DNA of 55,264 nt from a virus (taxonomy: Duplodnaviria > Caudoviricetes): IMG/VR virus record IMGVR_UViG_3300042546_000342, positions 1 through 55,264 of that record. One strand, given 5' to 3'. Positions 24,537 through 52,085 of this stretch are shown piece by piece. Position 1 is the stretch's first letter; each line of letters starts with the position of its first letter. A program made the translations under genes and the position numbers. The notes under the pieces were generated by a model. It had not been told where the DNA came from, ran no database searches, and was given only the letters and a program-made list of their open reading frames with translations.

Positions 24537-26477
24537 ATGCAGATAGTACAGCCAAGTGGAAGTATGTTACCTAACCAAGCAAGTGCGGGGGTAGGGGCGG
24601 TTATATTTGACAAGCCGAAGTATGATGCGCAAGAGATTGGGTTAAAGGTTCAAGCAGACCTAGAGGATTGGGGTAAGCAAAAAGCATTAGCCGACCAAGC
24701 TAAACTAAAAACAGCTAAAGACCTTGTTGCCGATTTGTCTTATGAGCCTAAAGACTTTTTGCCCGAAGGTGCGGCTCAAGTAAAAGCCAAAGCAGACGAA
24801 CTAAAGAAAAAGGCGGCAGAATATGAAATGGCTGTTTATAATGCGGGAGCAGATAGTGAAACAGCTAACCTAAAAAAGAAAGAAGCGGAGATAGCTAAAA
24901 GCGATTTGCAGATATTGGTAAATAACTTAGGGCAAGCATCAAAAATGCTTACAGAATACAAGCCCGATGCGACTACCGACTTAGATGCTCAAAATAAATT
25001 AACTGTTGAATTAAGACAAAGTGCGGGAGAAAATGCTTTAAGTGGTAGATTTTTTAAGGCAATGCAACAATATGGCAAACCTATAAAGCCAAAAGGTATG
25101 ATTGAAGTTACGGATGACTTTGTTAAAAACATACCACTTAAAAAGACAGAAGAAGTAGTAGGGAAGGATGGTAAGATTATAGAAGAAGGTACTTCATTTA
25201 AGTTAAAACCAATCAAATATGACGACAAAGGGGTGATAATTGATGATGGTGATTTCGACTTGGTAACGGGCGCACCCGCTAGTCTTGCATCTACACCCGA
25301 ATATCAAAATGCAATTAAACCTTTTGTTGCTAGGATGTTAGACGCTAGTAAAAGATTGGAAAAAGGCGAGCAGTTGGCAGCTAGTGAAATGACTGACGCT
25401 TCTTTGTATAAATACTATGTAGATGAAGCGGCAAAAGAGAGTAAAAGATTAGGCAGACCGATATCCCCCGAAACAATAATCGCTAGAGGTGAATTAGAAA
25501 GAAGAAATCAAGTAGAAAAAACAGCTTCCTATAAAGAAGAAACTGCCACCACAAAAGAGATGGCTAAAGTCGGTGCAGAACAAAGTGTAAAGAAGAAAGC
25601 TGCAACAGGATTGATTAATTGGTTTATAGAAGTGGATAGAGGAAGCCCCGAAATATACACCAATATGACGATTAGCGATGTTGCGCCTAAGTACGATAGA
25701 GAAGTTTACGCTACTAAAGTATTAAGTCCAATTTCGGTAGGGGAAAAGTTTGAAACAAAAGAAGGGGCGAATGGTGCTATATATAAGATTGCTACACCCG
25801 ACTATGTTAGGTACTTTATGCAAGACAAAGAAACGGGAACTAAGTTCTATGCTAGTCAAAGCAGTATAGACGACTTCAATGACGGCAAAATATCTTCTCC
25901 GTTCAAGCAATACAAGAACATTGCGGAAATAGCAGCACAAGCCACGTTTGTTAATGGTGCTGACCAATCTATTGACAATATGAAAAACTATTGGGCAGAA
26001 GTTGGTAAGGAAAAGAGTTACTCAAAAGAGGACGGAAATGGCATTATCTACAAAGAAGGTAGAGAGATACACCCTTTCACCAAAACAGAACAACAAAAAT
26101 ACGGTGCAAACCTACGGCAGACAATGATTAAAGCGGGTACAACTTTACCTAAATACGAGAAAGGTAAAGTACCTGCTGATTTTTCGGGGCAATATTTGGA
26201 AGTGGAATACAAAGAAGGGGAAAATAAAAAACTTGAGATAATAAAGTCAACCCCTAGAGTGGCGAAACCTACTCCGCAACCGACTGTTGCTGATACCACT
26301 ACACAAACAACAGCAACTCCACCGCAGACCGCCCCGAAAGAGGAAGAACCTAAGAAAGAAGGAAAAACGGTTTCATTGCAAACGATAAAAAGTAAAGTAG
26401 GTACTAAAGGATTTGAAGGATACACCGAGAAAGAATTGGTTGACTATTATACATCACAAGGATATAAAATACAATAA
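24537..26477 (+). CDS. Putative internal virion (ejection) protein 2
   Basis: 646 aa, Cys-free, K/E-rich, P/T-rich linker near the C-terminus; coupled to the next gene (TAATG). Confidence 0.6.
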   Translation: MQIVQPSGSMLPNQASAGVGAVIFDKPKYDAQEIGLKVQADLEDWGKQKALADQAKLKTAKDLVADLSYEPKDFLPEGAAQVKAKADELKKKAAEYEMAVYNAGADSETANLKKKEAEIAKSDLQILVNNLGQASKMLTEYKPDATTDLDAQNKLTVELRQSAGENALSGRFFKAMQQYGKPIKPKGMIEVTDDFVKNIPLKKTEEVVGKDGKIIEEGTSFKLKPIKYDDKGVIIDDGDFDLVTGAPASLASTPEYQNAIKPFVARMLDASKRLEKGEQLAASEMTDASLYKYYVDEAAKESKRLGRPISPETIIARGELERRNQVEKTASYKEETATTKEMAKVGAEQSVKKKAATGLINWFIEVDRGSPEIYTNMTISDVAPKYDREVYATKVLSPISVGEKFETKEGANGAIYKIATPDYVRYFMQDKETGTKFYASQSSIDDFNDGKISSPFKQYKNIAEIAAQATFVNGADQSIDNMKNYWAEVGKEKSYSKEDGNGIIYKEGREIHPFTKTEQQKYGANLRQTMIKAGTTLPKYEKGKVPADFSGQYLEVEYKEGENKKLEIIKSTPRVAKPTPQPTVADTTTQTTATPPQTAPKEEEPKKEGKTVSLQTIKSKVGTKGFEGYTEKELVDYYTSQGYKIQ

Positions 26478-29400
26478 TGGAAGAAAAATTATTGCCACCA
26501 CCGCCAAAGAAAGTAGTTTCGCAAAACGGAGAAAGTGATTTATTGCCACCGCCTCCAAAAAAAAAATTAAACGAACCTACAAGTGGAAGCGTAGAAGTTT
26601 CAAAGACCGTTTCTACGCCTCAATCAGGGCTTTCGCAAGGGAGTGGAACAAAGGATAGCGCACCTACTACATATCAATGGAGTGGTGGCGATGTGAAGAT
26701 GCAACAAAAAGTTGTAACTCCATCGGCTTCCGATAGCCAATCTGCTGTTAATGTTGTTACAAAAGAAATGACTGCGGAAGGAAGATTAGCGGAAGAAAAA
26801 GAAGGTTACGAATTATCGAATAAAAAATCCTTAGCTGAACAAGAGGCAAGTAAATCATTTTCAATAGCAACAGAAAATTATACATACGACCAAGTAAAAA
26901 ATTTAGTTCAGTTGCAATCTTTATTAAATAAAACTATTGAAGATAATAAAGACCCTAAATTAGCAAAACAAACTCAAGACGTTGAAGTAATTAAAAAACA
27001 AATTGAAAATTTAAGAAATCAACAAGTAACTCCAAAATATACATTAAACGCAGAAGGACAAACAGTATCATATATTAAACCTAAATATAAAAATGTTGGT
27101 GAAATGTATGATGAAACTATAATGTTTCAAAATAAGCATCAAAAATTAATTGGGGAAATAGAAAATTACGAAACTAAATTAAACCCAATTATTGAAAAAG
27201 CTAGAAAAAATGCTCAATATACACCAAATAAAAAAGACGAATACGGGAATACTTATTATGATTTAAACCCTATGGAGGCTTTTTTAAATGGAGCGGAAAA
27301 TTCACTAGAAACAACTGCAATAGGGTTAGCTAATATGTTTGGCTTTGACGATGAAGCTAAGAGTGCTGCTCAAATGAAATGGTACAAAGACAATGTAATT
27401 AGTCCAAAAAAAGCAGATGGTTTAGTATCACAAGGTTTTGAAATGCTTGGTGGAGTTGCTCCATTGGTAGCAGGTGGTAGTTTGGCTCAAGGTTCTGTGT
27501 TAGGTTCTGTTATAATAAACTCTCTTTTGTTTGGCGCACAAGATTATGGTGGAACTTGGTATAATTCATACGCATCAAAGAAGGCAGAAGGGATGTCAGA
27601 TGAAGAAGCTAGCAAAGAAGCCAATAGCAATGCTAGATTTGCAGGTGTTAAAGGTATGATTTTGGGAGGTACTATGCCATTGCAAAGTATGGCGGGTAAT
27701 AAGGTAGGTGTTTCACTATTTGTAACAAAAGCTGAACAAAATTCTTTTAGGCAATTTATGTATGGTCAAATAGGTATGCTACCTGCGTTTGGTACATCAA
27801 CTGCTTTGCAGAATTGGTACGAGGGGAAACCTGTTACTGATAATGTCGGAAGAGCCATGATTGATGCGTTCATTATAGGTGGTATGACCCACGCTATTGC
27901 AAATTTGCCAAAGTTACCTGCGGCAACTGCGAGATTATTTGAACACACGATTGCTAAAAATTATAATAAAGTATCTACCGTCATAGATGCTGCTGTTCAA
28001 GATGGAACTATAAACCCTACTGTGGGCGAAAACATAGTAGCTAAGGCTAAAGCGTATGACAAGATAAAGGGAGCGGGGTTAAACGAAGATGTTGAAGTAC
28101 AAGTTACTGAATTACAAGTACAGATTGACAAATTAGAAGCATCAAAAGAAGGTGCTTCACCTGCTGTTATTGCAGAAATTGATAGACAAATAAACGAATT
28201 ATCTACTAAACTAAAAGTTGAAGCAGGGTTTCCTTTAACGCCCGATGAGCGCAAAGAACTTAATCTACTTCAAGCAGCTAGAGATAGCAATAAAGAATAC
28301 GATAAAGAAAAATTAGCGGAACTAGAGCAACGACAAAAGAACAATCAAGACGGGAAAACCAAATTAGTTACAGACCAACCTATCCGTGTAAAGTATAAAG
28401 ACGGTAGAACGGGTCTTGTGTTTGTGAACGCAGAGGGTGATGTAGAGTTTGTTCCCGATGGAAATTCTGCGGGGTTGGTTATAGACAAACAAGCAGGTGC
28501 AAGTTTTAGAAGTTTGGCTAATTTAGGTTTTGAGCAAGTTGTTGGCGAAACGGTTGCTGAACCTAATTCTCAATTACTAAGTGGCGATATAGCTGTCGGG
28601 ACTAATGTTTTATATAAAGGCGGTAAATATCAAATTGCTAGTAGTAAGAACGCCCCCGATGGGGTTAAGCTAGATGCTGACGGCAAGGTGAGAGTAGTGT
28701 ATTTAAAGGGAGAAGATGGCAAGGTAATAGCTGTTGGTGCAGATAGTGCAGACGGGAAAAGAATTATTGACGATGCTAATAGAGTGATAGGTAAAGGCGA
28801 AGCCACGCCTACTGAAACAGCACCCGTTCAAAAAGAAACAAAAGTAGTCGAGGCGCAGAAGAAAACAGATGAAACGGTTGAAGTGGAGTTAGAGCCTACG
28901 GTGACAGAAGAAAAGGTCGAAGCAGTACAAACCCCTACTGAAACAGTAACGGAAGCAGAAGTTGTTACCCCTATTGCGCCCGATGGCGAAGTGGCGGTTG
29001 AAACAGCACCCGAATTTATTGAAAGTACAGAAAAGGTTATCCAAGAAGCACCTAAAGTAGAACAAGTAGCCGAAGTCAAGCCAATTAAAATACTAGAGGC
29101 ATCAAGAAAGTATGTGCCACTAGATACGTTTGATGCAGTAATGAAATATTTTGCCGTTGGTGGTAGAATAAACACCGAAGATTTAAAGTCGGAAACGGGC
29201 TTTGGTTCGCAAAAAGGTGGTGGAAGAATAACAAGTAAGGGGAACGTGATTTCTGAAACTAGAGGCAAGGAAGATTTTAAAAAACGTAGTTGGGTTCATT
29301 CTAGCAAAGCACCAAAGATGGACGATTTGGTTATGAATATTGCAGAAGAAATGACTGCAATGAACCCCGATATGGAGTACGACCAACAACAAATAAGAAG

Positions 29401-32400
29401 CGAAATTATTGAGGTATTAAGTAGATACGATAGTAAACTTGATATACAAGCAGAGTTGGCTAAAAAATATGACGATGCTTCGTTCATTGAGAATTATGGA
29501 ATGACACGCTCTCAATATGAAGCCTATGTTGAAGAAGGTAAATACAAGGCAGAGCAAGAAAAAAAGTGGTACGAAGAAAACGGCTTGAATTGGGAAGAAC
29601 AATCTGAAATGGACGAGTATGCTACTGAACTAGAAGAAAGTGGCATTACTGAAGAAGATATTATCAGAGAAGCAAAAGAGTACGATGAATACCTAAATAC
29701 ATTATCTAACGAAGAAAAACAAAAAGAATTAGACTATGCAAACGCAAAAAACACAACTAACCAACGAGGAGAAAGCGAAACGAATGTTGAAAATCAAGAA
29801 GATGCAAGAGGTAAAAACGAAGAAAGGCTTGCAGAAGCCAAGCGTAACTTCTTAGATGCCGAAAGTGAATACAACAAAGTCACTAAAGCACTAGAAACCG
29901 ACTTAGCCAACAAACAAGGTTCTATGTTTGACGGCAAAGAACAAAAGTTGTTTGACAATAGCGCAGACCTAGCCAAAAAAGCAAAAGACGCTAAACGCAA
30001 ACTTGATGAAGCTAAAGAAGCCTACGACAAGGCACAAGGATTAGTAGATGATAAGTTGCAAGGGCAAATGGAGTTAGGCAAAAATCAAGAAAAGTCTACG
30101 TTTAAAACCCAAGAAGAAACCAAAGTTGAGCAAGCCACCGAAAAGGTACAGAAATTTAAGGACGTATTAGACCAACGCACCGACAAAAAGACGGACAAGG
30201 CACTCAAAGCATTTGGCGAACAAGAGGCAAAAGCAAAAGAGTTAATTGACAACTACGACACTAACTTTAAAAAGCTAGAAGAAAAAGGAGTAGAAGTCAA
30301 GGGTACTAAAGCAGAAATCTTAGCTGATATGCTAGATGGCAAGTACGATGAAGCGTTAAAGAGTGATACTTCTATTCCATCATCTAAGTCAGGTGATAGT
30401 AAATCAGAAGTTCAGAAAGCTAATGAAGAAGTATGGAAAGCCGTACAAGACGTATTAAATGCGGGGGATTTTACTAAGTTAGGCTTTGCAGCTAAAAACG
30501 TAGGAGAAAAGTCGGCAGAAGCGTTAGATAGATTGCATAAAGCGTTAGTCAAAGCGGCAAAGGCTTATTTAAAAACAGGTGGAAATTCGGTAAAACAATT
30601 TGCTAAAAATATTGGCTTGAGTACAAAGAACGCCAAGCAAGCGTGGGACGAGGCAATGGGTCTTACAACTTTCAACAAAGACAACCTTGACTACGACCTA
30701 GCCGATATAGCAAAGGTAGCTATTCGCAGAGGAATAAAGGTGCGTGAGAAGTTACTAGAATACAAAGCAAAGCAAAAGGATGTAGCCAAAGCCATTAAAG
30801 ACTTTATGGATGACGCTGAAATCAAGGGTGCGCTTAGCCCAAGCCAAGTAAAAGCATTGGTAAAAAGAGCCGCTAGTATCACAACGGACGCTCAATTTGA
30901 TAAGTTTATTGATTATGCTGATAAGATAATTAAAGACGCAAATTTAGCGCAAGATTTAGAAGATTTGCGTAGCAACCAAAAGGGTGCAGGAAAGAAACGC
31001 CACAATGAAAAAACGGCTGACGTAAGAAAGTTTTTGGACGCAGAAATATTTGATGAGGACGGAAACTTATTGCTAGATGAAGCCACATTTAGTGAATATT
31101 CAGATGCGGTAGCGGCACTTAATCAAAAAATACCTGACCACTCTTTGATGGAAGCTACTGATGCTTCGGGTAAAACGCTATCGGAAAGAGTTGCCGACCA
31201 ATCACAATCTGCTTCTAATCCGTATATGAATATTAATACGGTACAAGACTTAATGAAGGCTTGGACTGCCCTTGACAATAATATAGTTGATATTGATAGC
31301 TACAAATCATTTACTAGAAATATCAGCAAGATTAAGGCAAGGCTAAAGGATTTAGTCCAATCAGGTACGATTAAACAAGATGATTACGACACCGCTATTA
31401 GTCAAATATACAAGCACGAAAACGGCAAAAGAGTATATGAAGCAAAATATGGCGACCAAATTGGGCAATTAAAATCCGCACAAATAGCCGATGCTCAAGC
31501 AAAAGCAAGATTGGTTGATGATAGTGGGTTCAATAAAATGCAGAAAGAATTGTGGCAAGAGTTCAAGCGCAATATGTCGGTTAATTTTGAGAAGTTTAAG
31601 AAATTGGAAGTTTCTGACTTGGATAAATTGAACACCGTCCTTGACCGAATGGGTAATGGATTTATGCCCGAATATGAGTTCAGACAAGTAATGAACAAGA
31701 TTGAAACACAAGGACAAGGAGTTAAGATAGCTAAACAAGTAGCTAAGATTTCAGATAAGTTTAAAAACAACTTAGATAAACTTCGTGATTTATTTGAAAC
31801 AAATGACCCTGCGAGATACGAAGCAGAACTAGGAATAGCGGGAGATAATTCATTGTGGAATGGCGTGTTAAGTAGAACACAACGTGCGCTAAAAAAATAT
31901 ACTGAAACCACGCATGATATGTATGAGAAGTGGTATGATAGTTTACCTAGCTTCTATAAAATTACGGGTAAAAAACCTGTATTGATAGACAAGATAGATG
32001 CTAAAGATGGTAAGGTAGGCAAAACTGTTGTATCTCAAAGGGAGTATGATATGGTCAAGGTGGGTGTGGTTCGCCACATGATTAACCACGCTGCTGAAAT
32101 GATAGCTAAAGGTAAAGACCCAATAGATGTATTTGGTGAGCAACTAGCTGACATTAAGGAACGTCAAAATTACGCCACAGAAGGTGAGTTAAGTATCTTA
32201 ACTGATGTGTATAACAAATTGAAGTCTAATCCTGATTTATTAGATATTAATGGCGAATTAGATTACAATAAAGTTTGGAAAAGCGTGGAAGCTAATGACG
32301 GTAAAGTGTTGGACGTAAATCAAGCTAAAATAGAAAGTTCATTTGACGGTCTTGACTTAGAAACAGGTGATATGATTACATCATCTAATGCCATAAGAGG

Positions 32401-34063
32401 TGTGAACGCCACTAAAAATCCAAAACACATCAGAAGATATTATGTAGGAACACGAGTTGGCGAAGGTCAGATTAACGAAAGCGAACAGATTGGGGTGAGA
32501 GCAGGTTCATCTTACGCTCGTGCAGAAAAAGATATGCCTAACGGTGCTATGTTATTAAATGCGGAGAAAATCATTCAGCGTCAAATTAAAGAAGCCGCAA
32601 AAGATTACCACATTAATCAAGAATTGGATAAATTGAATGATGTGTTTGAAGAAGCTAAGTTAGCAGCTAACAGAGAAGATATTAATGTGCTAAACGAGTT
32701 TCAACAAGACCAACGTAGGATAATGCAGTATCATTTATCATCGGGCGACATACCTCCTGTGTTTAATAAAATACAAGGTGGGCTTTATGTGAAAATGCTT
32801 ACCACTCCTTACCGTTTGGCAGCAGAAGCGGTATCAAATACCGCTCAAATGATGGTAAGAGGTAGGTCTTTTAGAGGGTTATTAACTGCGTTACCTAGTG
32901 AAAAAGTTAATCCAATGTATCGTGAAATGACCGATATAATGAAAGCTACCGAAAGTACATCGTTAGACCACGCTGAATTTAGGTCAATGAAAAACATTGA
33001 AACTAAAGACGGTCAAATACAGCGAGAGGGGTTATTAAAACGTGGCGTGGATATTATCAACGGTGTGACAAACGCAATGGCGGTGGGCGGTATATGGATG
33101 CCAAACTTTAATAGAAAATTTGCTGAACTTACAGGTGAGAATTATAATAATTCTATGCTGAAAAACCCTAAGTATGTAGATGCTATGCGTGAGGCTTCAT
33201 CTTATGCAGATAGAGAAACAGAAACGGTTATTGGTTCTACGCTAAAGGGAGGTTCAAGAAGAGAAATAGTGCTTACTCCTTTTGGTGGTAAACTAAAAGC
33301 AGATACCGCTTTAGGTAGTTTAGCTAAGTTTTTGAGTAATTATCCTTATCGAGATACAAAAGAATTAGTTAGAGGTATTAATCAAATGGTTACGGGAGTA
33401 AATGAGGGCAGAATAGACGGTGCAGCAAGGTCTATGGGTGTTGTTACTAACATGATGCTTTACACAGGAATGTATGCTATTACTAAGTCTTTGTGGAAGC
33501 AAACTTTTGGCGATGACGATGAAAAAAAGGAAGCAAAAGAAACAATAGACCGATTATCTACAAAAGAAGGATTTGTAGACTTCACTAAACAAGAGGCGTT
33601 ATCAAATGCAGTAAATCTAGCAGGAACTAAATATTCTCAAGCGGGTAAAATGATGACAAGATTGAGTGTGATAGCTTTATATAATTCAAATTTGCTAGAC
33701 GAAACGCAAAAGAAAGACCTTGCCAATTTTGCCGAAGCGCAATTATATATGTACTTTAATAAAAAAAGTTTCCGTAAAAGTGATGCGCAATCCGAATTTT
33801 ACAATGTCATACCTCATTTAAAAGAAGCGTCTGATATATTCTATCGAGAGGTGAAAGGCGAGGAGGGTGTAACAGCATTGCTTAAAGAAGCTAGAGAGAA
33901 AGGCGTAGAGGGATTGACTAAAGACAAACAAGCACAATTATCGCTATTGAAGAACTTTATACATACCACAAATATTTTATTGTATTCGCAAGGAACGCAA
34001 TTGCCGTTCTCTAAAGATTTCGTAAAAAGTTTGGAGGTTCAAATAAAAGAATTAAACAAATAA
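26477..34063 (+). CDS. Large putative internal virion (ejection) protein 3
   Basis: 2528 aa, Cys-free, Gly/Ala-rich hydrophobic region near the N-terminus, long coiled coils, acidic tract. No RNA polymerase motif recognised. Confidence 0.65.
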   Translation: MEEKLLPPPPKKVVSQNGESDLLPPPPKKKLNEPTSGSVEVSKTVSTPQSGLSQGSGTKDSAPTTYQWSGGDVKMQQKVVTPSASDSQSAVNVVTKEMTAEGRLAEEKEGYELSNKKSLAEQEASKSFSIATENYTYDQVKNLVQLQSLLNKTIEDNKDPKLAKQTQDVEVIKKQIENLRNQQVTPKYTLNAEGQTVSYIKPKYKNVGEMYDETIMFQNKHQKLIGEIENYETKLNPIIEKARKNAQYTPNKKDEYGNTYYDLNPMEAFLNGAENSLETTAIGLANMFGFDDEAKSAAQMKWYKDNVISPKKADGLVSQGFEMLGGVAPLVAGGSLAQGSVLGSVIINSLLFGAQDYGGTWYNSYASKKAEGMSDEEASKEANSNARFAGVKGMILGGTMPLQSMAGNKVGVSLFVTKAEQNSFRQFMYGQIGMLPAFGTSTALQNWYEGKPVTDNVGRAMIDAFIIGGMTHAIANLPKLPAATARLFEHTIAKNYNKVSTVIDAAVQDGTINPTVGENIVAKAKAYDKIKGAGLNEDVEVQVTELQVQIDKLEASKEGASPAVIAEIDRQINELSTKLKVEAGFPLTPDERKELNLLQAARDSNKEYDKEKLAELEQRQKNNQDGKTKLVTDQPIRVKYKDGRTGLVFVNAEGDVEFVPDGNSAGLVIDKQAGASFRSLANLGFEQVVGETVAEPNSQLLSGDIAVGTNVLYKGGKYQIASSKNAPDGVKLDADGKVRVVYLKGEDGKVIAVGADSADGKRIIDDANRVIGKGEATPTETAPVQKETKVVEAQKKTDETVEVELEPTVTEEKVEAVQTPTETVTEAEVVTPIAPDGEVAVETAPEFIESTEKVIQEAPKVEQVAEVKPIKILEASRKYVPLDTFDAVMKYFAVGGRINTEDLKSETGFGSQKGGGRITSKGNVISETRGKEDFKKRSWVHSSKAPKMDDLVMNIAEEMTAMNPDMEYDQQQIRSEIIEVLSRYDSKLDIQAELAKKYDDASFIENYGMTRSQYEAYVEEGKYKAEQEKKWYEENGLNWEEQSEMDEYATELEESGITEEDIIREAKEYDEYLNTLSNEEKQKELDYANAKNTTNQRGESETNVENQEDARGKNEERLAEAKRNFLDAESEYNKVTKALETDLANKQGSMFDGKEQKLFDNSADLAKKAKDAKRKLDEAKEAYDKAQGLVDDKLQGQMELGKNQEKSTFKTQEETKVEQATEKVQKFKDVLDQRTDKKTDKALKAFGEQEAKAKELIDNYDTNFKKLEEKGVEVKGTKAEILADMLDGKYDEALKSDTSIPSSKSGDSKSEVQKANEEVWKAVQDVLNAGDFTKLGFAAKNVGEKSAEALDRLHKALVKAAKAYLKTGGNSVKQFAKNIGLSTKNAKQAWDEAMGLTTFNKDNLDYDLADIAKVAIRRGIKVREKLLEYKAKQKDVAKAIKDFMDDAEIKGALSPSQVKALVKRAASITTDAQFDKFIDYADKIIKDANLAQDLEDLRSNQKGAGKKRHNEKTADVRKFLDAEIFDEDGNLLLDEATFSEYSDAVAALNQKIPDHSLMEATDASGKTLSERVADQSQSASNPYMNINTVQDLMKAWTALDNNIVDIDSYKSFTRNISKIKARLKDLVQSGTIKQDDYDTAISQIYKHENGKRVYEAKYGDQIGQLKSAQIADAQAKARLVDDSGFNKMQKELWQEFKRNMSVNFEKFKKLEVSDLDKLNTVLDRMGNGFMPEYEFRQVMNKIETQGQGVKIAKQVAKISDKFKNNLDKLRDLFETNDPARYEAELGIAGDNSLWNGVLSRTQRALKKYTETTHDMYEKWYDSLPSFYKITGKKPVLIDKIDAKDGKVGKTVVSQREYDMVKVGVVRHMINHAAEMIAKGKDPIDVFGEQLADIKERQNYATEGELSILTDVYNKLKSNPDLLDINGELDYNKVWKSVEANDGKVLDVNQAKIESSFDGLDLETGDMITSSNAIRGVNATKNPKHIRRYYVGTRVGEGQINESEQIGVRAGSSYARAEKDMPNGAMLLNAEKIIQRQIKEAAKDYHINQELDKLNDVFEEAKLAANREDINVLNEFQQDQRRIMQYHLSSGDIPPVFNKIQGGLYVKMLTTPYRLAAEAVSNTAQMMVRGRSFRGLLTALPSEKVNPMYREMTDIMKATESTSLDHAEFRSMKNIETKDGQIQREGLLKRGVDIINGVTNAMAVGGIWMPNFNRKFAELTGENYNNSMLKNPKYVDAMREASSYADRETETVIGSTLKGGSRREIVLTPFGGKLKADTALGSLAKFLSNYPYRDTKELVRGINQMVTGVNEGRIDGAARSMGVVTNMMLYTGMYAITKSLWKQTFGDDDEKKEAKETIDRLSTKEGFVDFTKQEALSNAVNLAGTKYSQAGKMMTRLSVIALYNSNLLDETQKKDLANFAEAQLYMYFNKKSFRKSDAQSEFYNVIPHLKEASDIFYREVKGEEGVTALLKEAREKGVEGLTKDKQAQLSLLKNFIHTTNILLYSQGTQLPFSKDFVKSLEVQIKELNK

Positions 34064-43184: not shown

Positions 43185-43831
43185 CAATAGCCATCCCGAC
43201 CTACTACAAGGACAGCCGAACACTAGATAAGCTAGACTTACTATTCAAGTCCATATCCGCACAAAAGAATGTGGATTTTTCGGTTTTGGTCAGCGATAAC
43301 TCCGAACTCGACCATATTGAGAACCTTTGCGCCCGATATGGGTTCAGCCATCAGTATTGCGATAGAAAAGGAACTTCTGCCAACACTAACGCTTTACTCG
43401 ACCAACTAGACGGTAAGATAAAGATAATGTACCAAGATGACCTCTTTATGACCGACACGGCACTAAAGGAGTTCAGCGATGCCCTAGATAATTACAAGTG
43501 GGTAGTATCTACGTCAACTTTAATTGACGAGCGAGGACTGCCTATGTGGGGAGTTAATAATCCTCATTTCCACCACCGCCTAACCCACTCTAATACAATC
43601 GGTATGCCATCTGTGGTCGGGCTGTGGGGAACGGACGTAAGAATGGACACTAGACTGATTACTTTATTGGACACCGACTTTTACAACAAGCTAGTAAAAA
43701 AATATGGGCTTCCGTACATAATACAGAAACCCATTATTGGTCAAAGAGTTTGGAGTGGAAGCGTATCAGCTAGCTTGAGCCAAAGCGACAAGATTAATGA
43801 CCTCGCTATTCTCGCATCCGATTTTTCTTAG
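43181..43831 (+). CDS. Glycosyltransferase family 2-like
   Basis: IAIPTY, LVSDNS, YQDD, IGMPSVV, LLDTDFY motifs. Confidence 0.8.
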   Translation: MTIAIPTYYKDSRTLDKLDLLFKSISAQKNVDFSVLVSDNSELDHIENLCARYGFSHQYCDRKGTSANTNALLDQLDGKIKIMYQDDLFMTDTALKEFSDALDNYKWVVSTSTLIDERGLPMWGVNNPHFHHRLTHSNTIGMPSVVGLWGTDVRMDTRLITLLDTDFYNKLVKKYGLPYIIQKPIIGQRVWSGSVSASLSQSDKINDLAILASDFS

Positions 43832-44269
43832 CAGAGTGTTTAAATTTTTCAACACCGCTTGGTTTTTCTCGCCCGTGATGGCGTACAGTCTTACCAATTC
43901 AGAGTAAGCGTCCGATACAAAGTCAGAATAATTCTTTTGGCGCAACAAAGGTTCTGCGTAGTCAGAAACCATGCTCACCGCTTGAGCGACTTGTAGTCTT
44001 ACCTCCTCGTCACTATCGCATAAGTCTTGGAGTTCTTGGAGTGAACTTAGGATGGTAGAGTGGTGACGACCACCGATTTCTTTTCCTATGTCTTTTAGAG
44101 TGAACGGGTACATCCCGTCCAAGTAATGCTTGCGTAGCATATAGCAGAATAAGTGTCGTGCTTGAGCGATAGGTCTTAGCCTACTCTTTGATTTGATTTG
44201 TTCTTGAGTGATACCTGTTAAGGTGTACACAATCATAAATGCTTCGTTGATTTTTTCTGTTCTGTTCAT
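43766..44269 (-). CDS. Protein with DnaA C-terminal (domain IV) HTH
   Basis: KSR...IAQARHLFCY..RK...LKDIGKEIGGRHHSTIL; no AAA+ domain. Confidence 0.85.
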   Translation of the reverse strand: MNRTEKINEAFMIVYTLTGITQEQIKSKSRLRPIAQARHLFCYMLRKHYLDGMYPFTLKDIGKEIGGRHHSTILSSLQELQDLCDSDEEVRLQVAQAVSMVSDYAEPLLRQKNYSDFVSDAYSELVRLYAITGEKNQAVLKNLNTLLRKIGCENSEVINLVALAQAS

Positions 44270-45666
44270 ATGTATCTAGTTTTAGTTGATGGTATTGAAA
44301 TATAATTCGGTGTTCCACTTGCTATCCATTCTTCGTCCTCGTATCGTGTACCCACTTTCGGTGCGTCCAATCTTCTGATATAATTTGTCCTAGACCACCA
44401 AAAGTTCCCTTCGTAGAAGCCTATCCAATTCACACCGCAAGTATCGTAACCATTTCTGATATGTGCAATGCAGTCACGCCAATTTAACAAAACTTGTGTA
44501 TTCATTTCATCCCTCCATTCCGCCACGTTGTCCGCCACTTTACTAGCTCCCTTAGTGTGGAAGTATAGAATGATACTCGGCACGGTTTGAGATAGCTCGT
44601 GCATAAGGGTGATGGTAGGTCTTTCGTAGCCTTCCACTCCCCAATAGTGGAACTTAAACTTATCTCCGTCTAGTATGTCAATCAAGTCCTTAGTATCCTC
44701 TTGCGCCCCAATCACCCCTACATGGATTTCTTGTAGTTCGTAGTACAGACCCGACCTTTTCATAATCTCGTATTGTTCGGTCACGATGGACTTCCAAGCG
44801 TTTTTCATATAAACATGATAGTAGCCAATTATCCGTTTGTTGTCGGCTAGCTTCGGGGTGTAGGTGAACTTCTCTTTGAAGCCTGCCATATCAAAATAGT
44901 AGGACACGAAGTCGTTGTATATTTTGATTATGTCTGTGCTTTTCACTTCTGTGCCAATGATGGACAGACCTATGTACTTATCAATGATGTACTCTTTACT
45001 GCGCCAATCGTTCAGTATGTGTAGGTAGATAGGTCGCCACGACTTTTTGTGAGGAAGAACACCCGTGATAGCACACGCTATGTTGAAAGCTAGTTCGTCA
45101 GGGAATTGTTCTCGCCAAGTTTCTGCTTTAAAGCCCGATTTCAGCACCTTTCTAGCTTCGCAGAATACTGCCTTAGCTTTATCGTTATTAAGCCAAAGAA
45201 TAACGGACGAGTTTACTTGCGGTATTTTTGTGTCAAGTGGTAGGTTGAAGAACTTAGCTATGTCCTCATACTTCGCCCACGCCCGATACTTGGGGGACGG
45301 TTCGCCCGATAAGGGGGAGATACCAATATTGAACATCGTAAAATCACTACTCTGCAAGAACATCTCATCAACTGAATGTGACGGATTGATAATCGTATCA
45401 GCGTCTAGGAATAAAGTTTCATGGTAAGGGGTCATCAAGTCTAGCGACACCTTGAGTTCCATTACTTGCTTGTTGGGCGTTACATTGTCCTCGATTAAGA
45501 TGTGGTGGTCGAACACGGCTAGATAGTCTTCTAGTCCCTTAAATGCCGACTTAGAATAGATAATTCCTATCGGTGTTCGGCTGTTCTGTTTTATGGACAC
45601 CGCTAGTGCGACAGCCATCCGCCCGTATAGGGGTTCTCCTACGGCTATTGTTAGTATTCCTTTCAT
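44266..45666 (-). CDS. Two-domain glycosyltransferase-like protein
   Basis: N-terminal GT8-like domain (FLDADT, VNSSVI, PDE.AFN). C-terminal domain with YE.PT, YFHTKG and GNFWW motifs. Confidence 0.7.
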   Translation of the reverse strand: MKGILTIAVGEPLYGRMAVALAVSIKQNSRTPIGIIYSKSAFKGLEDYLAVFDHHILIEDNVTPNKQVMELKVSLDLMTPYHETLFLDADTIINPSHSVDEMFLQSSDFTMFNIGISPLSGEPSPKYRAWAKYEDIAKFFNLPLDTKIPQVNSSVILWLNNDKAKAVFCEARKVLKSGFKAETWREQFPDELAFNIACAITGVLPHKKSWRPIYLHILNDWRSKEYIIDKYIGLSIIGTEVKSTDIIKIYNDFVSYYFDMAGFKEKFTYTPKLADNKRIIGYYHVYMKNAWKSIVTEQYEIMKRSGLYYELQEIHVGVIGAQEDTKDLIDILDGDKFKFHYWGVEGYERPTITLMHELSQTVPSIILYFHTKGASKVADNVAEWRDEMNTQVLLNWRDCIAHIRNGYDTCGVNWIGFYEGNFWWSRTNYIRRLDAPKVGTRYEDEEWIASGTPNYISIPSTKTRYI

Positions 45667-45681
45667 GGTTATGTTCGATTT

Positions 45682-45903
45682 TTAAAATGGACAATTTTGT
45701 TTTGGTATTAGTTCTATTTCGCTTTTTAGTTTTTCTAGGCTGACAAAATTGCGGTTAATGTAATATCCTGCTTTGCCTCCTTTTATGGTTTTCTTTATTT
45801 CTTTACTCGTTTTTAAGTTAATCAATTTTTTACATTCAGTCCAAACATAATGATGGAATACCTTGTGCCTCCACTTTGATTTGTAACTACATAAAACATT
45901 CAT
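45682..45903 (-). CDS. Small basic hypothetical protein
   Basis: Track ORF 45682-45927; ATG 45903 preferred over the TTG start. Confidence 0.5.
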   Translation of the reverse strand: MNVLCSYKSKWRHKVFHHYVWTECKKLINLKTSKEIKKTIKGGKAGYYINRNFVSLEKLKSEIELIPKQNCPF

Positions 45904-45952
45904 AATCAAATTTATTTTAATGGGCAAAGTTGCACATATTTACGAGTTATGG

Positions 45953-46162
45953 CTAATTGCCTTGCGACACGAATACTTTTAGCGTTCTGCCATTATCTTG
46001 CACCCGTAATTCCGTTCTGTTTGTTGGTTTCCAATTAACATAGCTTCTGCCTTTTTCGTCAATCACTTCAACTCTGTTAATCATTGCAGTCGGCAACATA
46101 GCCATAACATCGGCTATGCTCAATGCATTACCTTCTGCATTAAATAATCCTGTGTTTTCCAT
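45953..46162 (-). CDS. Cassette-associated hypothetical protein reading through a repeat arm
   Basis: 69 aa; LSIADVMA is encoded by the arm at 46099-46123 and the stop lies in the 45946-45955 arm. Confidence 0.65.
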   Translation of the reverse strand: MENTGLFNAEGNALSIADVMAMLPTAMINRVEVIDEKGRSYVNWKPTNRTELRVQDNGRTLKVFVSQGN

Positions 46163-46294
46163 ATCAAATTTTTTTTTTAAAATTAGCTTAGTATTTCAAA
46201 TACGGCACTAAGCATAGCCGTTTACCGTTATAAAACATTGAAACGATTTTATAACACCAAATAGGCGTAAGGCTTAGTTTCGTTCTTTGTATTA

Positions 46295-46462
46295 TCATTT
46301 CGTTTCAAAAATTATTTTTCTATCGCTTCGTTCTTCAAATTTTCGTATGCAACTTTCTAAATCGTGGTCATCTGTTATTCCACTTAAATAATCTCCAGCT
46401 TCACCACTTATTATATCAAATAGTAGTTGCAACTCTTCTTTTGTAAATTTTGTTTCTTCCAT
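46295..46462 (-). CDS. 55-aa acidic protein inside the loop of an attC-like site (absent from ORF track)
   Basis: MEETKFTKEELQLLFDIISGE...IIFETK*, between arms 46257-46269 and 46516-46528. Confidence 0.55.
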   Translation of the reverse strand: MEETKFTKEELQLLFDIISGEAGDYLSGITDDHDLESCIRKFEERSDRKIIFETK

Positions 46463-46546
46463 AAAATAATTTTTGTTTAGTTCTTTGTATAAAGTTTATA
46501 GATTAATAATCGCCCTACGCCTATTTGGATAACGTTATAACCAATG

Positions 46547-46822
46547 CTAACAAGCAGTAGTCATATAATCAAAATTTTCGGACTTGCTGAACAAATCAAT
46601 AACCGCTTCTGTTGAAATTGGTATAATGTGATATGTTTCACTATTCCGTTTTTTAATGTATAATTTAGGCTTGTCAAGTTCTCCACTCGTTACGCAAACC
46701 ATTTGGTTTTTATTTACTTTTTTCTCTAAAGCAAATCCGTGATAGCCTGTTTGTTTAAACTCGACATTACAACTCATATCGGTTCTTTCAAATCCTAAAT
46801 CAATGTATTTTTGGTATTCCAT
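46547..46822 (-). CDS. Cassette hypothetical protein
   Basis: 91 aa filling the interval between 15-bp inverted repeats; TAG stop overlaps the arm. Confidence 0.7.
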   Translation of the reverse strand: MEYQKYIDLGFERTDMSCNVEFKQTGYHGFALEKKVNKNQMVCVTSGELDKPKLYIKKRNSETYHIIPISTEAVIDLFSKSENFDYMTTAC

Positions 46823-46935
46823 ATTGTTATTTTTTTAAGTTAATTAATCAAAAGCACTGGTTATAACAGCACATAAGCAAAAGCCCAAATTCCACCGCAC
46901 AAAGCCGACACACAACTGCGTATAGCTGCATCACG

Positions 46936-47109
46936 TTACCTAATTTCCATTTTCAAAATATAATTACCGCCATATCGGATGCTACGGAGTTCGGTTTTTA
47001 AATTCTTTTCTTGAGTTTTTTGTAGTTCGGTTTGAACATAATTAACCCATGCAAGATACGACAAATTTTCGGGGCGTTCAATAGTTTTTGAGATTTTTAC
47101 TTCTGTCAT
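46936..47109 (-). CDS. 57-aa hypothetical protein (absent from ORF track)
   Basis: MTEVKISKTIERPENL...KMEIR*; its TAA is the TAA of the TAAC core at 46935-46938. Confidence 0.55.
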   Translation of the reverse strand: MTEVKISKTIERPENLSYLAWVNYVQTELQKTQEKNLKTELRSIRYGGNYILKMEIR

Positions 47110-47112
47110 GGT

Positions 47113-47220
47113 TTAGTTTTTTGAATGAGTTAAATTGAATACAATTCTGTCTAGTATAACGTACACGGGTACTCCCTCTTGTGCCGCTTGCTTCTCTAGG
47201 TCTTGGATGGTTAGTGCCAT
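47113..47220 (-). CDS. 35-aa microprotein
   Basis: MALTIQDLEKQAAQEGVPVYVILDRIVFNLTHSKN*, fills the gap between neighbours. Confidence 0.5.
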   Translation of the reverse strand: MALTIQDLEKQAAQEGVPVYVILDRIVFNLTHSKN

Positions 47221-47221
47221 A

Positions 47222-47488
47222 TTAGTTGGTTGCTTTTTGGATTACTGCTTCAAATAATTCGACCAAAGCGGGGTTTGTGTCGTAAACGTGGGCGTGGTCA
47301 ACTGCTTCTCTCAATACAGAAAGCATATCGGGCGCATTTGCAATTAATTTTGCGTTTGCTTCGGCTTCATCTTCAAAAAGTGTATTTATTGTGCAAACTG
47401 TACCCATCATTGTATTTCTTGCCCTTACTTTTAATTCGTTGTTATGGTTACTTACAAACCATTCGCCTTGTGTGTGTTTAGTTTCCAT
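47222..47488 (-). CDS. Small phage protein, KHT.G.W...EANAKLIA.APD family
   Basis: Same motif pattern as 51804-52085. Confidence 0.7.
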   Translation of the reverse strand: METKHTQGEWFVSNHNNELKVRARNTMMGTVCTINTLFEDEAEANAKLIANAPDMLSVLREAVDHAHVYDTNPALVELFEAVIQKATN

Positions 47489-47627
47489 TGTTTTCAGTTT
47501 TAGCTTGTTGAGATAATTTTAATACTTGCAAGATGTACCCGTGTAGCGTTCTGCCGTCTTTCTTTGCGGAGGATTTGAGTTTCATTTTTAGTTCCTCGTC
47601 TAGTTTAATGCTCGTTGGCTTTTTCAT
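47478..47627 (-). CDS. Ribbon-helix-helix (Arc/CopG-like) protein, 49 aa (absent from ORF track)
   Basis: PTSIKLDEELKMKLKSSAKKDGRTLHGYILQVL fits strand-helix-G-R-T-helix. Confidence 0.7.
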   Translation of the reverse strand: MKKPTSIKLDEELKMKLKSSAKKDGRTLHGYILQVLKLSQQAKTENNGN

Positions 47628-50000
47628 TGTTGTAGTTTTATGATTAAAATAGTTAGTTCGTTGTCGGTCATTGTAGCCTTTAGTTCTTCGGCTAGGTTGA
47701 TGATTTCTTGTGGTGTCATGTTTATATATTTTCGGTGAAGTAAATATCGAAACATTTTTCTTGGAAACATACCCCTATCCTCGCCCCGTGTTTCTCCGCT
47801 TTTTGGATTGTTTTTATTAAGTTGGTGCTATTTATCCAAAATTGTTTTCTTGGGTATGCTCTATAAAAAAATCCTCCGTTTATATACTTTGATGTCGAAA
47901 GGTGAGGGGTGTAGTTGTCCCCGAAGATGTTCTCAATGATTTGTAGCTTGTTCATATTTTAGTTTTTAGGATTTGAGATAATTGGTATCGGTACTTCATA
48001 AGTAATACTCCGCAAAGTGAAGCAATAAAAATTAGTTTTACAAGTAGTTTTGTCATTTTAACAGTTTTTAGATTGTTTGATATTTCAATATTGCTTCTTT
48101 CTGCTCCCAATGTTCTAAAATATAGTCCCATTGTGGGGCGTTGAGTATGAAGTTTGCAGACACTAGGAACGCAAAGTTTTCATAGTTACTTCCAAAAAGA
48201 AATTCTTTTGGGTACATAGGGTAGATTATTTTGTAGAATATATCTTCCGTGCTATTTGAGTAGTCAAATTTTTTGATGGTCATAGTTTTCAGTTTTTAAG
48301 ATGAGAAAATCGCAATGAGTAAAATAATGACTAGCAAGAATAGCGTGTAGTCTGTCGTTGGTTTGGTTTTCATATCTAGTTTTTAGGGTGAATAATTTTT
48401 GATGCTGTGATGTACCCATGAAGCCAATGGTTCATGTTGGTGTAGTCGAGTGTCGGGCTGATGGTGTTTTTACCTAGCTGTGCGAAGTATTTAGACAATT
48501 TTTTGCGCCTGTCGGTGCTGATACGCTCGTGAATGGATAGGCTGACGGAGGACGCTGCGTTTTGGAGTGTTTCTAGTTCGGTCATATTTTTAGTTTTTTG
48601 AGATTACATTTTGACCAAGTGTATTGACTTTCTTCGGTTTCCACGTTATCGTTGCTATTTACTCGAATAACGGTTTGAGTGTCGCCACTTGCTGTTAATA
48701 CTTTGTCGCCTTTTTCTAGTTTTTGGTTCATACCTGCAACGGAGGCGGAATAAGGGATTAATGTTTTCATGTCTAGTTTTCTATTAGTTTTATGGCTTCT
48801 CTAATAAATTCGACTACTTCTTTGCCCCCGATTAGGTAGTTGCCGTCAGCGTCATAAATGTACGCTCTGAATTTAGTCGTTACCGAGTTAGTGAGTTGAA
48901 ATTCTTTTTCTTTCTCGAAAATGTAGTCAATAATGGCTTTTTTTAGTTCTTTTCTCATGGTTTTTAGTTTTTGGGATTTAAAATGAAATTTCTTTCAAGA
49001 AAATAATTTAATTCTCTGTTGCTTAACTCCCTGTTTAATTCAAAAAATTTAGAGCGTTTGCTTTGGCTGTATTCTTTCATAATGTCTATTGAAAAACGCT
49101 TAAAGCCTCCCGCATTTTGTAGTTTTTCTACTTCTTTTAATTCGGTTTTTGTTAAATGCAAAACAGAATTGTCTTTCTTTGTAGTGTTTGCGCTTAAAAT
49201 GATTTCGTAGATTTTCATAGTTTTAGTTTTTAGTAGTTCAAATATTTTTTAGGTGTTTTATTGTACATGATTATATTATGTCCACTTTGCCAAGAATTTA
49301 TGAAAAACTCTTTTATAATTGTAGTTTTTTTGTCTTTAGCTGTGCATATTACTATCCCCAATCCTAGTACACCCTCTTCTATTGTGGTCACATTTCCTCC
49401 TATTTCTATGTATTTGGAAATTAGTTTTTCGCAATCTGATAATGAATAATTTGAGTTTTTCATGGCTGTTTTTAGTTTTTATAAGTTAAAAATTTTGCGT
49501 AGGTCAATTTGTTGTGGGGCTTCTGCTTTTTCAATATTCAGTTTTACCCATTTGAACGCCTCGTCTGCCGTTGTGTTTTCGCTCAATCTTGTGCCAAATA
49601 AGGGCATTTTGTCTTTGTTTCGATAGATACTAAGGCTTATGGTTTTATCGTCTTCATTAGCCTTCTTTTTTACCGTGTAAACGGCTGTTAATGTTGTGAT
49701 TTTCATAAATTGGTATTTTTAAGGGTTTGCAAATATTTTTTGTGACTTCTGCGCTTGATTATGTCTAAATTATAGCCGATGTTTTCGAGTTCAGTTTTTA
49801 GGTCTAAATACTCGGACGGTGAGGCGGGGCGGGTAAAGGTGTTTATTTGCCAAGTTGCTCCGCTGTGTTGTCCGTTATGCGCATAGCTTAGAACAGTATT
49901 TCTGCCCTCTATTTCGTACGGGAAGACGGCTATAATCTCGCCTTTTAGTTTTCTAAATTGTACGGCTGTTTTGTGGGTGTCTTTCATGGCTTTTGTTTTT
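47624..50000 (-). other. Cluster of tightly packed small hypothetical genes
   Basis: Track ORFs 47722-47955, 48068-48283, 48376-48585, 48582-48770, 48773-48958, 48964-49218, 49230-49463, 49479-49706, 49703-49987, plus microORFs 47624-47719, 47952-48056, 48296-48373. All on minus with A-rich leaders or ATGA overlaps. Confidence 0.7.
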
Positions 50001-50063: not shown

Positions 50064-50630
50064 TTAGTGATTAAGGAAAAAATAAATAGTTCCGTCCTCG
50101 TCTGTTGCTGTGTTGTAATCGTAACGGAGGGAGCAATTCCAAGAAGCGTCCCAATCTATACAAATCCAATTCGGGAGATTTGCGGGAATTTCTCCGCACT
50201 CTTCTGCCATACGTTGCGCAAAATCTGCTTCGCTGTCTGCTGTGCCGTGAAAAGCGTCTTGAGCGTCCGAAAGTTCAATGTCTGAAATATTGTAGCCCGT
50301 TGCATCTGCGTACATTTCAACAATTTTTTGGTCGTGTTCGTCCATGTTTATAAATTCAAAAAGTTTTTCTATTGTTTGTTTGTCGTAACTTTCGCAATAA
50401 AAACACTTCGGGAAGTCCTCAAAATCGGTAAACATTATCTCCTCTCTAGGGCTGTCTAGTGGACTTTTTTTGTCTGCTTCTGCGAAATGGTTTTCGATGT
50501 ACTCAAAAAATTCATCTGCGTTTGAAAATTGGCAAAGGTCAACCCAATGCCCAAACTCAAATTGAGTTCCATTGTTATAGCTTGCATAATCAGTTAAAAA
50601 TAGTTTTGGTTCTGTTGTTGTTGTGTTCAT
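50064..50630 (-). CDS. ardA: Antirestriction protein ArdA-like (DNA mimic)
   Basis: YASYNNG...GHWVDL, E..FTDFEDFP, G.ADSEADFA, IP..L...IDW; very acidic; first gene after TATATTTG (minus, 50686-50693). Confidence 0.85.
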   Translation of the reverse strand: MNTTTTEPKLFLTDYASYNNGTQFEFGHWVDLCQFSNADEFFEYIENHFAEADKKSPLDSPREEIMFTDFEDFPKCFYCESYDKQTIEKLFEFINMDEHDQKIVEMYADATGYNISDIELSDAQDAFHGTADSEADFAQRMAEECGEIPANLPNWICIDWDASWNCSLRYDYNTATDEDGTIYFFLNH

Positions 50631-51803: not shown

Positions 51804-52085
51804 TTACTTTGTGGCTTTGTCAATTGCTTGTTGGATTATCTCTCTAACCGTTAATGCGTCTTTGCGCTCTTGGTTGATTAATTTTCTTGCTGCTTTCAAC
51901 GCTTCGAGCAAGTCGGGCGCACTAGATATGAGTTTTGCATTGGCTTCGTTCTCCTCGCTTGGTTCGCCCCGTTTGGGGTCAATTAAAGCTATTATTTTAC
52001 GGCTGTCTTGTGTGTCGGTTACTTTGTGAGCGTATATTGTTAGCCCACTGTATTTCCATTGTCCGTCTGTGTGTTTTGTTTTCAT
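51804..52085 (-). CDS. Small phage protein, paralog of 47222-47488
   Basis: MKTKHTDGQW...EANAKLISSAPDLLEAL. Confidence 0.7.
   Translation of the reverse strand: MKTKHTDGQWKYSGLTIYAHKVTDTQDSRKIIALIDPKRGEPSEENEANAKLISSAPDLLEALKAARKLINQERKDALTVREIIQQAIDKATK

Follow-up and report, generated by a model that had tools for sequence, protein, structure and literature searches.

Can a small phage gene take its translation start from one source and its coding body from another when the joint between the two is itself translated? The question is raised by ORF69, a gene of 69 codons in a 55,264-nt IMG/VR record (IMGVR_UViG_3300042546_000342; completeness rating 46%), the whole of which was analyzed and is referred to below as the window. 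A first-pass annotation had suggested that this gene is read through a putative recombination site, and that exchange at the core of the site would create new fusion proteins. The window is that of a lytic-type phage with portal, terminase, DNA polymerase, primase-helicase and lysis genes on its plus strand, and from ~45.7 kb onward it carries a block of small genes on its minus strand that includes ORF69 and an ArdA-like anti-restriction gene (50064..50630, minus strand; phrog_2059, E 5e-22).

Several other features of the window were recorded. A gene with a DnaA C-terminal helix-turn-helix domain (43766..44269, minus strand; PF08299, E 5e-15) lies at the switch of transcription direction, and a 2528-aa ORF with no PHROG match (26477..34063, plus strand) adjoins a 1620-aa virion structural protein. 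Two paralogous small genes on the minus strand, 47222..47488 and 51804..52085, both match phrog_1273 and stand 4.5 kb apart in an early-type block. A contig of sequencing run X8 omits 271 nt of the window (47226-47498) and has 3 other letters instead, which takes out almost exactly the 88-aa gene 47222..47488 and resembles a cassette-like indel in a close relative.

Lake water was the main origin of the sequencing runs containing the ORF69 stretch, and RNA sequencing runs contained 5-9% of its words. An ORF69 96% identical to that of the window was found on a 10-kb contig (L119) binned with an uncultured Chitinophagales genome; this is probably a phage contig and a hint at the host group, and together with the lake-water origin it makes a member of the Bacteroidota the likely host of the window phage. 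The same contig also has four elements of the type described below, all on one strand, together with genes for a phage lysozyme, a DNA methylase and an ERF-type annealing protein. Among cultured phages, a blastn search with window positions 45000-48000 against a phage collection gave no match and a tblastn search with ORF69 gave a single weak one (44% identity, a Ruegeria phage), leaving ORF69 without an annotated relative there.

The folded site around ORF69

The gene and the parts of the site through which it is read are listed below.

45953..46162, minus strand: ORF69, 69 aa; residues 1-24 form the front module and residues 25-69 the body.
46227..46232, minus strand: 5' box TATAAC (TAAC = 46230->46227), the upstream limit of the unit common to other phages.
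46204..46220, minus strand: 5' arm (C) of a long-range helix, from inverted repeat I16 and covariation.
46127..46203, minus strand: loop with a local hairpin, an A-rich leader, the start codon (46160-46162) and codons 1-12.
46111..46126, minus strand: 3' arm (C'), encoding A-L-S-I-A and the first base of the D codon.
46092..46111, minus strand: 20-nt core, encoding DVMAMLP; the joint of front and body, containing GTTA (46108->46105) and arm D (46108->46092).
45946..45961, minus strand: arm D', complementary to D; encodes G-N, the stop codon (45953-45955) and the next TAAC (45949->45946), and is the downstream limit of the shared ORF69 unit.
46226..46256, minus strand: small local hairpin (GTTATAAAA and its inverted copy), from folding, between the ORF55 unit and the ORF69 unit.

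The arms of the long-range helix correspond to repeat I16 (46111-46126 and 46205-46220; 16 nt, 88% complementary, 78 nt between them), and as both mismatches are G.T wobbles on the gene-sense strand, 16/16 positions pair there. Six nucleotides separate TAAC from the 5' arm and two separate the 3' arm from GTTA. The local hairpin of the loop (46213-46206 with 46193-46186) overlaps the 5' arm and competes for it; it is 75% paired and has weaker support than the long-range helix. The start and first codons had been assigned to the loop by the first-pass annotation, and they do lie there: the ATG is at 46160-46162, codons 1-12 follow within the loop, and codon 13 opens the 3' arm, which consists of codons 13-18, so that the 3' half of the site is coding sequence for ALSIADVMAMLP. 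The annotation's assignment of LSIADVMA to arm and core likewise stands, with its coordinates (46099-46123) corrected by one base to 46100-46123. The span that it gave to the site, 45953..46220, takes in the gene and the repeat and falls short of TAAC 46227-46230 and of the partner arm 45946-45961.

Comparison with homologs supports the translation start at 46160-46162 in the loop. Both the ATG and the A-rich leader upstream of it align in close relatives of ORF69, and the frame from the loop ATG is conserved and open in every context examined, as opposed to a start inside the cassette, which had been named as the observation that would count against translation across the site. ORF69 has 218 relatives, mostly of 69-71 aa and covering 94-100% of the query, and 760 cluster representatives at E <= 0.001 in a large protein collection. 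A profile search matched residues 26-66 to phrog_10600 (E = 1.3e-6), a family without assigned function, and Pfam gave no match for ORF69 or the neighboring genes. The predicted structure is poor (pLDDT 66, pTM 0.33); the model has a short helix over the joint (residues 16-22, its best-modelled stretch) and beta strands in the body.

A scan of the window for TAAC, a 16-nt arm, a complementary arm and GTTA returned two matches with 16/16 pairs (46230->46105 and 46537->46252), both on the minus strand, and none in 30 shuffles of the window. The 20-nt core occurs once in the window at <=3 mismatches and in 0 of 100 shuffles. When 46880->45930 was folded as RNA, four serial long-range helices formed (-217.8 kcal/mol, z = -5.4), with 0/20 shuffles as stable, and DNA parameters returned the same helices (-107.7 kcal/mol, z = -4.9); the antisense strand adopted the same fold with 18 kcal/mol less stability (z -4.3). 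The isolated 161-nt ORF69 site folds into local hairpins instead (z about -2), which means that thermodynamics alone does not settle the pairing and that the long-range pairing rests mainly on covariation.

The site belongs to a family of elements of ~137 nt in which TAAC, a spacer, a variable arm, a loop with a start codon, the complementary arm and GTTA follow one another. With G.T allowed, a scan of 31 related viral loci (216 kb) for TAAC-arm-arm-GTTA identified 11 cases, each in the sense of its gene, and no case in one shuffle of all 31 loci. In 8 of the 11, TAAC and GTTA are 117-119 nt apart, and both the arms and the genes behind them differ. Sixteen elements (4 found by complementarity, 12 via the core or the protein) were aligned. 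AAC and GTT are invariant in 16/16, 13/17 pairs of the C/C' helix change on both sides, 91.5% of cells pair as compared to 29-39% with the partner slid, and the covariation score was reached by 0/500 shuffles, with the proviso that cell counts overstate the number of independent events because the aligned elements are related. The 204 cells of the 12 elements not picked by complementarity comprise 148 Watson-Crick pairs, 38 G.T, 3 A.C and 15 others, and counted by position G.T appears somewhere at 9 pairs and A.C at 3. The excess of G.T over A.C on the gene-sense strand indicates that this single strand folds.

A covariance model built from the 16 elements found one strong copy in the window (136 bits; next best E 0.9), 2-5 copies in each of five related records and four more in L119, where a Pfam-confirmed DNA methylase lies behind a match. 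Within each record the copies occupy one strand and tend to cluster, the exception being a weak reverse-strand echo in G001 (E 0.04). Of the 7 elements in two related loci, L002 and L003, 6 carry an ATG at offset 60-77 of ~137 nt, and the ORF beginning there, 69-251 aa long, continues through the 3' arm; translation across the site is thus the rule in the family and no oddity of ORF69. One of these ORFs is DNA methylase-like, with a DPPY motif. At L003 5264-5400, the methylase-like gene has its start within the loop and acquires additional N-terminal sequence. At L012 3731-3928, the loop holds a separate small ORF and a methylase-like gene begins just after GTTA; by eye the two methylase-like genes look homologous. 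A further pairing, of sequence upstream of TAAC with sequence after the GTTA of the same site, was considered and set aside, with weak support on the flanks by eye.

A folded strand of gene sense could be messenger as well as DNA, and every strand-specific feature of the site would equally fit mRNA structure. The helices may thus form a clamp around the start or the small gene that insulates it, stabilizes it or marks it for processing, with shuffling as a by-product of exchange by relaxed homologous recombination or template switching at short stretches conserved for RNA reasons. We regard this explanation, the main rival to the integron-like interpretation given below, as rather unlikely, and it accounts for a good deal of what was found. 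Wobbles as G.U are confined to the transcribed sense strand (38 against 3 A.C) and one G.U pair is invariant in 16/16 elements, the ATG keeps a constant offset in an A-rich loop, the element is always oriented as its gene, and the RNA fold is unusually stable (z = -5.4). Rfam speaks against it in that the site gave only a sub-threshold match to a miRNA-like hairpin (E 0.13) and no known RNA family, and since codons 13-18 make up the 3' strand of the helix, its cleavage would destroy the message.

Natural chimeras joined at the core

The 20-nt core, exact apart from one free position, was found in 17 viral contigs, where at least 6 different front ends precede it and seven different bodies follow it; by BLASTP among these bodies, only a group sharing NRVEVID and one weak pair are alike. 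Recombination at the core, the annotation had argued, would join the start of one site to other cassette bodies, and fronts and bodies are indeed found in varied combinations. In the large protein collection, a 24-aa front end (88-96% identical) is attached to at least 8 bodies unrelated to one another, and the front end with its leader recurs on unrelated bodies at 94% protein identity and 85.5% identity over 152 nt of DNA. All 55/55 front-end pairs are alike as compared to only 2 clearly similar body pairs. Viral contig L016/L036, for example, carries the front end of the window on a body without a BLASTP match to that of the window. The L036 protein has full-length relatives of its own, and more than 60 proteins of the ORF69 family match only its first 35-36%; its body also stands behind at least 5 different front ends, two of which are domains of about 50 aa. 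The NRVEVID body has several front ends and is found 95.6% identical behind an unrelated 49-aa front end in L047. Among the best 150 of the 760 representatives, a hand tally placed the beginning of the match at query residue <=9 in 35, at 10-16, the beginning of the 3' arm, in 25 and at 17-28 in 90. All joints lie at the peptide (A/S)DVMA(M/L)LP, which is the 20-nt core. Unrelated N- and C-terminal parts are thus combined at the DVMA linker, with TAAC/GTTA-bounded complementary arms in the DNA, as the first-pass annotation had anticipated, and the opposite pattern, homologs always made of the same two halves, was not what was found. By sequence comparison, these genes are natural chimeras joined at the core; the exchange that would produce them is discussed below. 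Against Pfam and PHROGs, 11 chimeric proteins gave no match except one below the Pfam threshold.

The shared stretches measure 8-20 nt, below the k-mer length normal in final assembly, and several chimeras recur on several contigs, for which reasons neither the chimeras nor the junctions described below are thought to be assembly artefacts. The far end of the body is also conserved: arm D' (G-N-stop) stands at the stop codon in 14/16 core-carrying genes. D and D' are conserved and do not covary as C and C' do: a compensatory change was seen once, in L036, single mismatches occur several times, L094 has four, and L044 lacks the D' arm. The DNA from core to stop measures 130, 136, 142 or 148 nt (L033-L057), with bodies that have no mutual BLASTP similarity, and body length was seen to vary in 6-nt steps within a narrow range.

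A constant front end on changing bodies is also what would be expected of a protein-level signal, such as a targeting or packaging peptide, with the DNA identity reflecting recent spread and the repeats being secondary; the capsid-targeting sequence of T4 internal proteins is a model. The similarity of the front end across at least 8 unrelated bodies fits this explanation, as do the changes among six close homologs, whose codons 1-17 vary synonymously at 6 sites and non-synonymously at 4 when counted by eye, the predicted helix at residues 16-22 of an otherwise poor model, and the core peptide itself, which shows conservative variants such as DVIAMLP and EILALLP across the wider set of proteins. 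The codons, however, are held as well as the residues: 17/18 ORF69-family genes in viral contigs use the same core codons apart from the free position, and a search with all synonymous codons for the core peptide gave 44 matches and added one true family member, with one synonymous change. (What this degenerate-codon search added was otherwise discarded, being in unrelated contexts and, by a rough estimate, about the number expected by chance.) Nor would a signal explain the covarying non-coding 5' arm, the junctions at TAAC, the same architecture before unrelated genes of 132-251 aa that include a DNA methylase, or bodies that take quite different front ends. As a full account a signal peptide is therefore improbable, and it may coexist with either an integron-like or an mRNA reading of the site.

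Inverted repeats flank both the start and the body of the gene, and shufflons and phage tail-fiber inversion systems read genes across their crossover sites, so the repeats might instead be the ends of invertible segments that act as an on-off switch for a gene or exchange its C-terminus inside a single genome. We consider this very improbable. The window and each locus hold one core per genome, a search with the D' arm gave 16 matches of which 9 were relevant and 7 in unrelated contexts, with 0/9 inverted, and among the joints listed for the assembled contigs none changes strand within 45.9-46.9 kb. No invertase was found in the related records, and the G.T asymmetry would be unexpected for sites that act as duplex.

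Movement of whole units and candidate mechanisms

Two further units adjoin that of ORF69 in the window, and the loops of the three are 78-304 nt long.

46249..46541, minus strand: ORF55 unit; arms 46528->46512 and 46273->46257 enclose the whole 55-aa ORF (46295..46462).
46534..46867, minus strand: ORF91 unit (I18); arms 46867->46853 and 46548->46534, bearing GTTATAAC, enclose the 91-aa ORF (46547..46822).

The ORF55 arms (I5; 17 nt, 94%) pair at 16/16 positions in the box-arm scan, and ORF55 has no relatives among viral contigs. A compact, cargo-free hairpin site of the TAAC...GTTA type lies directly upstream of the ORF91 unit (46864-46937, minus strand). Over its 5' half (46892-46938) it shares 93.6% identity with 47 nt of L002, and many contigs of other runs break inside it.

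Whole units are shared between otherwise different phages. The L002 and L003 loci (~8.2 kb, drawn from 82-kb and 69-kb contigs) have only 46232..45946 in common with the 8.5 kb of the window compared by blastn. In nine loci the sequence upstream of TAAC is different in each, and after the closing TAAC of the ORF69 unit the core-carrying genes continue differently from one another. The ORF91 unit is common to 16 contigs at 93-99% identity up to GTTATAAC (46534), and from the base right after its TAAC there are 15 different continuations in 17 sequences, which have 4-8 nt in common. So short a shared stretch disfavors ordinary homologous recombination at TAAC, and the fact that joints have formed repeatedly and independently at a single base points to a process that recognizes a site or a structure. 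The mRNA explanation, with its relaxed exchange, is likewise at odds with 15 continuations from the very base after TAAC. At the intragenic core the situation differs, since the 20 nt shared there make homologous recombination possible. Contigs assembled from other runs depart from the window at 45949 (run X8 contigs), 46224 (a run X3 contig), 46263 and 46861/46863, and one run X8 contig holds 46232-46524 alone; these are assembled contigs, and window stretches that they do not cover carry no evidence. No excised circle, empty site or joint was seen among these assembled contigs.

By a modest margin over doubt, we favor the interpretation that ORF69 is a composite gene in an integron-like phage cassette array with folded single-strand sites. 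It is suggested by the attC-like layout, by a fold that is conserved and strand-specific, and by the exact joints at TAAC. The loop of a site would carry a leader, a start codon and ~20 codons, the 3' half of the site would be coding, and the body would follow, closing with a conserved arm that bears the stop codon as well as the next TAAC. Whole units would move between phages by recombination at the TAAC/GTTA boxes, and exchange at the GTTA-side core would fuse the translation start of one site in frame to the body of another unit. The folded molecule would presumably be DNA, cut by a structure-specific recombinase acting in trans from the host or another phage. Judging by complementarity, a single-stranded circle of the ORF69 unit, excised at its two TAACs, would collapse into a rod in which D', TAAC and C face C', GTTA and D, forming a central helix of ~33 bp that is closed by a loop on either side.

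Parts of this integron-like interpretation fit poorly. The boxes, typically (T/C)ATAAC and GTTATGG, share only AAC/GTT with the integron consensus RYYYAAC ... GTTRRRY, and the gene-sense strand folds, whereas integrons fold the strand antisense to their cassette genes. The conservation of D and D' without covariation and the variants of the core peptide outside the viral contigs also tell against it. A tyrosine recombinase (PF00589) was found in 0/10 records (the window and 9 relatives, two of them rated 100% complete), with controls for the search matched in 14/14 genomes, and a serine recombinase (PF00239) in 0/5 related phage records; as the recombinase, RNase III and ERF searches include partial records, absence from fragments proves little. 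The mRNA explanation, which would call for no such enzyme, gains from the lack of a recombinase in these phage records, from the identical 20-nt core, which could support annealing, and from the ERF-type annealing protein encoded in L119. It is weakened by the finding of no ERF in 5/5 records including the window, and of an RNase III gene in 0/5 phages, where a host enzyme would do.

On the integron-like interpretation, a broader proposal can be put forward tentatively, as something less probable than the array itself: phages of Bacteroidota may possess a system resembling exon shuffling, in which the loops supply a ready-made leader, start and N-terminal peptide, the single-stranded circle folds as a rod, and the recombinase acts in trans. 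Every capture at the GTTA-side box would then express the incoming body as an in-frame fusion, and the recombination sites would double as coding sequence and expression adaptor.

Relation to known systems and meaning

The rows of small accessory genes in one orientation seen here are similar to integrons and CALINs, and like a CALIN the phage array stands without an integrase. Strand-specific folding and the recurrence of the same unit in many contexts, with junctions at the box, are shared with integrons. The attC sites of integrons differ in sequence but keep their structure, contain R and L boxes with an unpaired spacer, and are bound as a folded strand (PMC9024848, PMC8618304). The present elements match the attC site in keeping a fold under variable sequence, with an outer box, an unpaired spacer, an inner stem and invariant AAC/GTT, and they fit the definition of an imperfect inverted repeat with boxes and an unpaired spacer (PMC9024848). 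Unlike integrons, the 10 phage records hold no IntI or other tyrosine recombinase, the strand that folds is that of the gene, and both ends of the site act as junctions. Where an integron or CALIN has an ORF between sites and a compact hairpin downstream, starts or whole ORFs lie inside the loops here, and since translation runs through the site, fusion proteins result at the joints; the carrier, moreover, is a lytic-type phage. Integron cassettes of aac(6')-Ib that lack their own start reportedly borrow one from upstream (attI starts), giving variable N-termini. In such cassettes too, translation crosses the cassette boundary and the N-terminus depends on upstream sequence, but this is an occasional accident there, as opposed to a start at a fixed place in 6/7 elements and a coding 3' half here.

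Shufflons (R64 Rci/sfx) and the Gin, Cin and Min systems have inverted site copies and alternative segments in one genome, together with their own recombinase. A gene read across a short conserved crossover, with a constant N-terminal part and alternative C-terminal parts, is common to them and to ORF69; in contrast to them, the core here is single in each genome, neither inversion nor a recombinase was seen, and the alternatives are distributed over different phages.

The PeSLs of T4-type phages are the precedent for the mRNA explanation, being regulatory cassettes that mediate shuffling. They are structured repeats between small non-essential genes that act as exchange points for ORFs, and intergenic promoter and terminator units with local stem-loops, homology recombination and whole-ORF swaps (PMC2839356, PMC4122927). 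PeSLs resemble the present elements in that short structured elements cause the insertion, deletion or replacement of ORFs between close relatives. They differ in that the arms here are long-range, compensating and partly coding, the junctions share 4-8 nt, and exchange is also intragenic. The hosts of these phages probably use promoter types other than the sigma-70 type of PeSLs.

The analysis adds that front ends and bodies are joined combinatorially and in frame at the 3' box, and no description of such a cassette system was found in the literature on phage integrons, attC and integron-like elements, or gene-flanking inverted repeats. As the sites are short and have many natural partners, and as circles and junction variants are predicted, the system lends itself to testing. 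For annotation, the N-terminal 20-25 residues of many such proteins should be treated with caution, as they may lie outside the functional domain. If the integron-like interpretation is true, the integron idea would be widened to sites that enclose cargo and are themselves translated, and to arrays that have no integrase of their own. It would explain why homology between such phages stops at exact bases, and the odd peptides that their proteins share (L.I.DV..LP near the start, GN at the end) would be translated recombination or structure boxes. Small phage proteins would then diversify by exchange of entire genes, by point mutation and also by combining front and back halves at a fixed nucleic-acid joint, a counterpart of exon shuffling in prokaryotic viruses.
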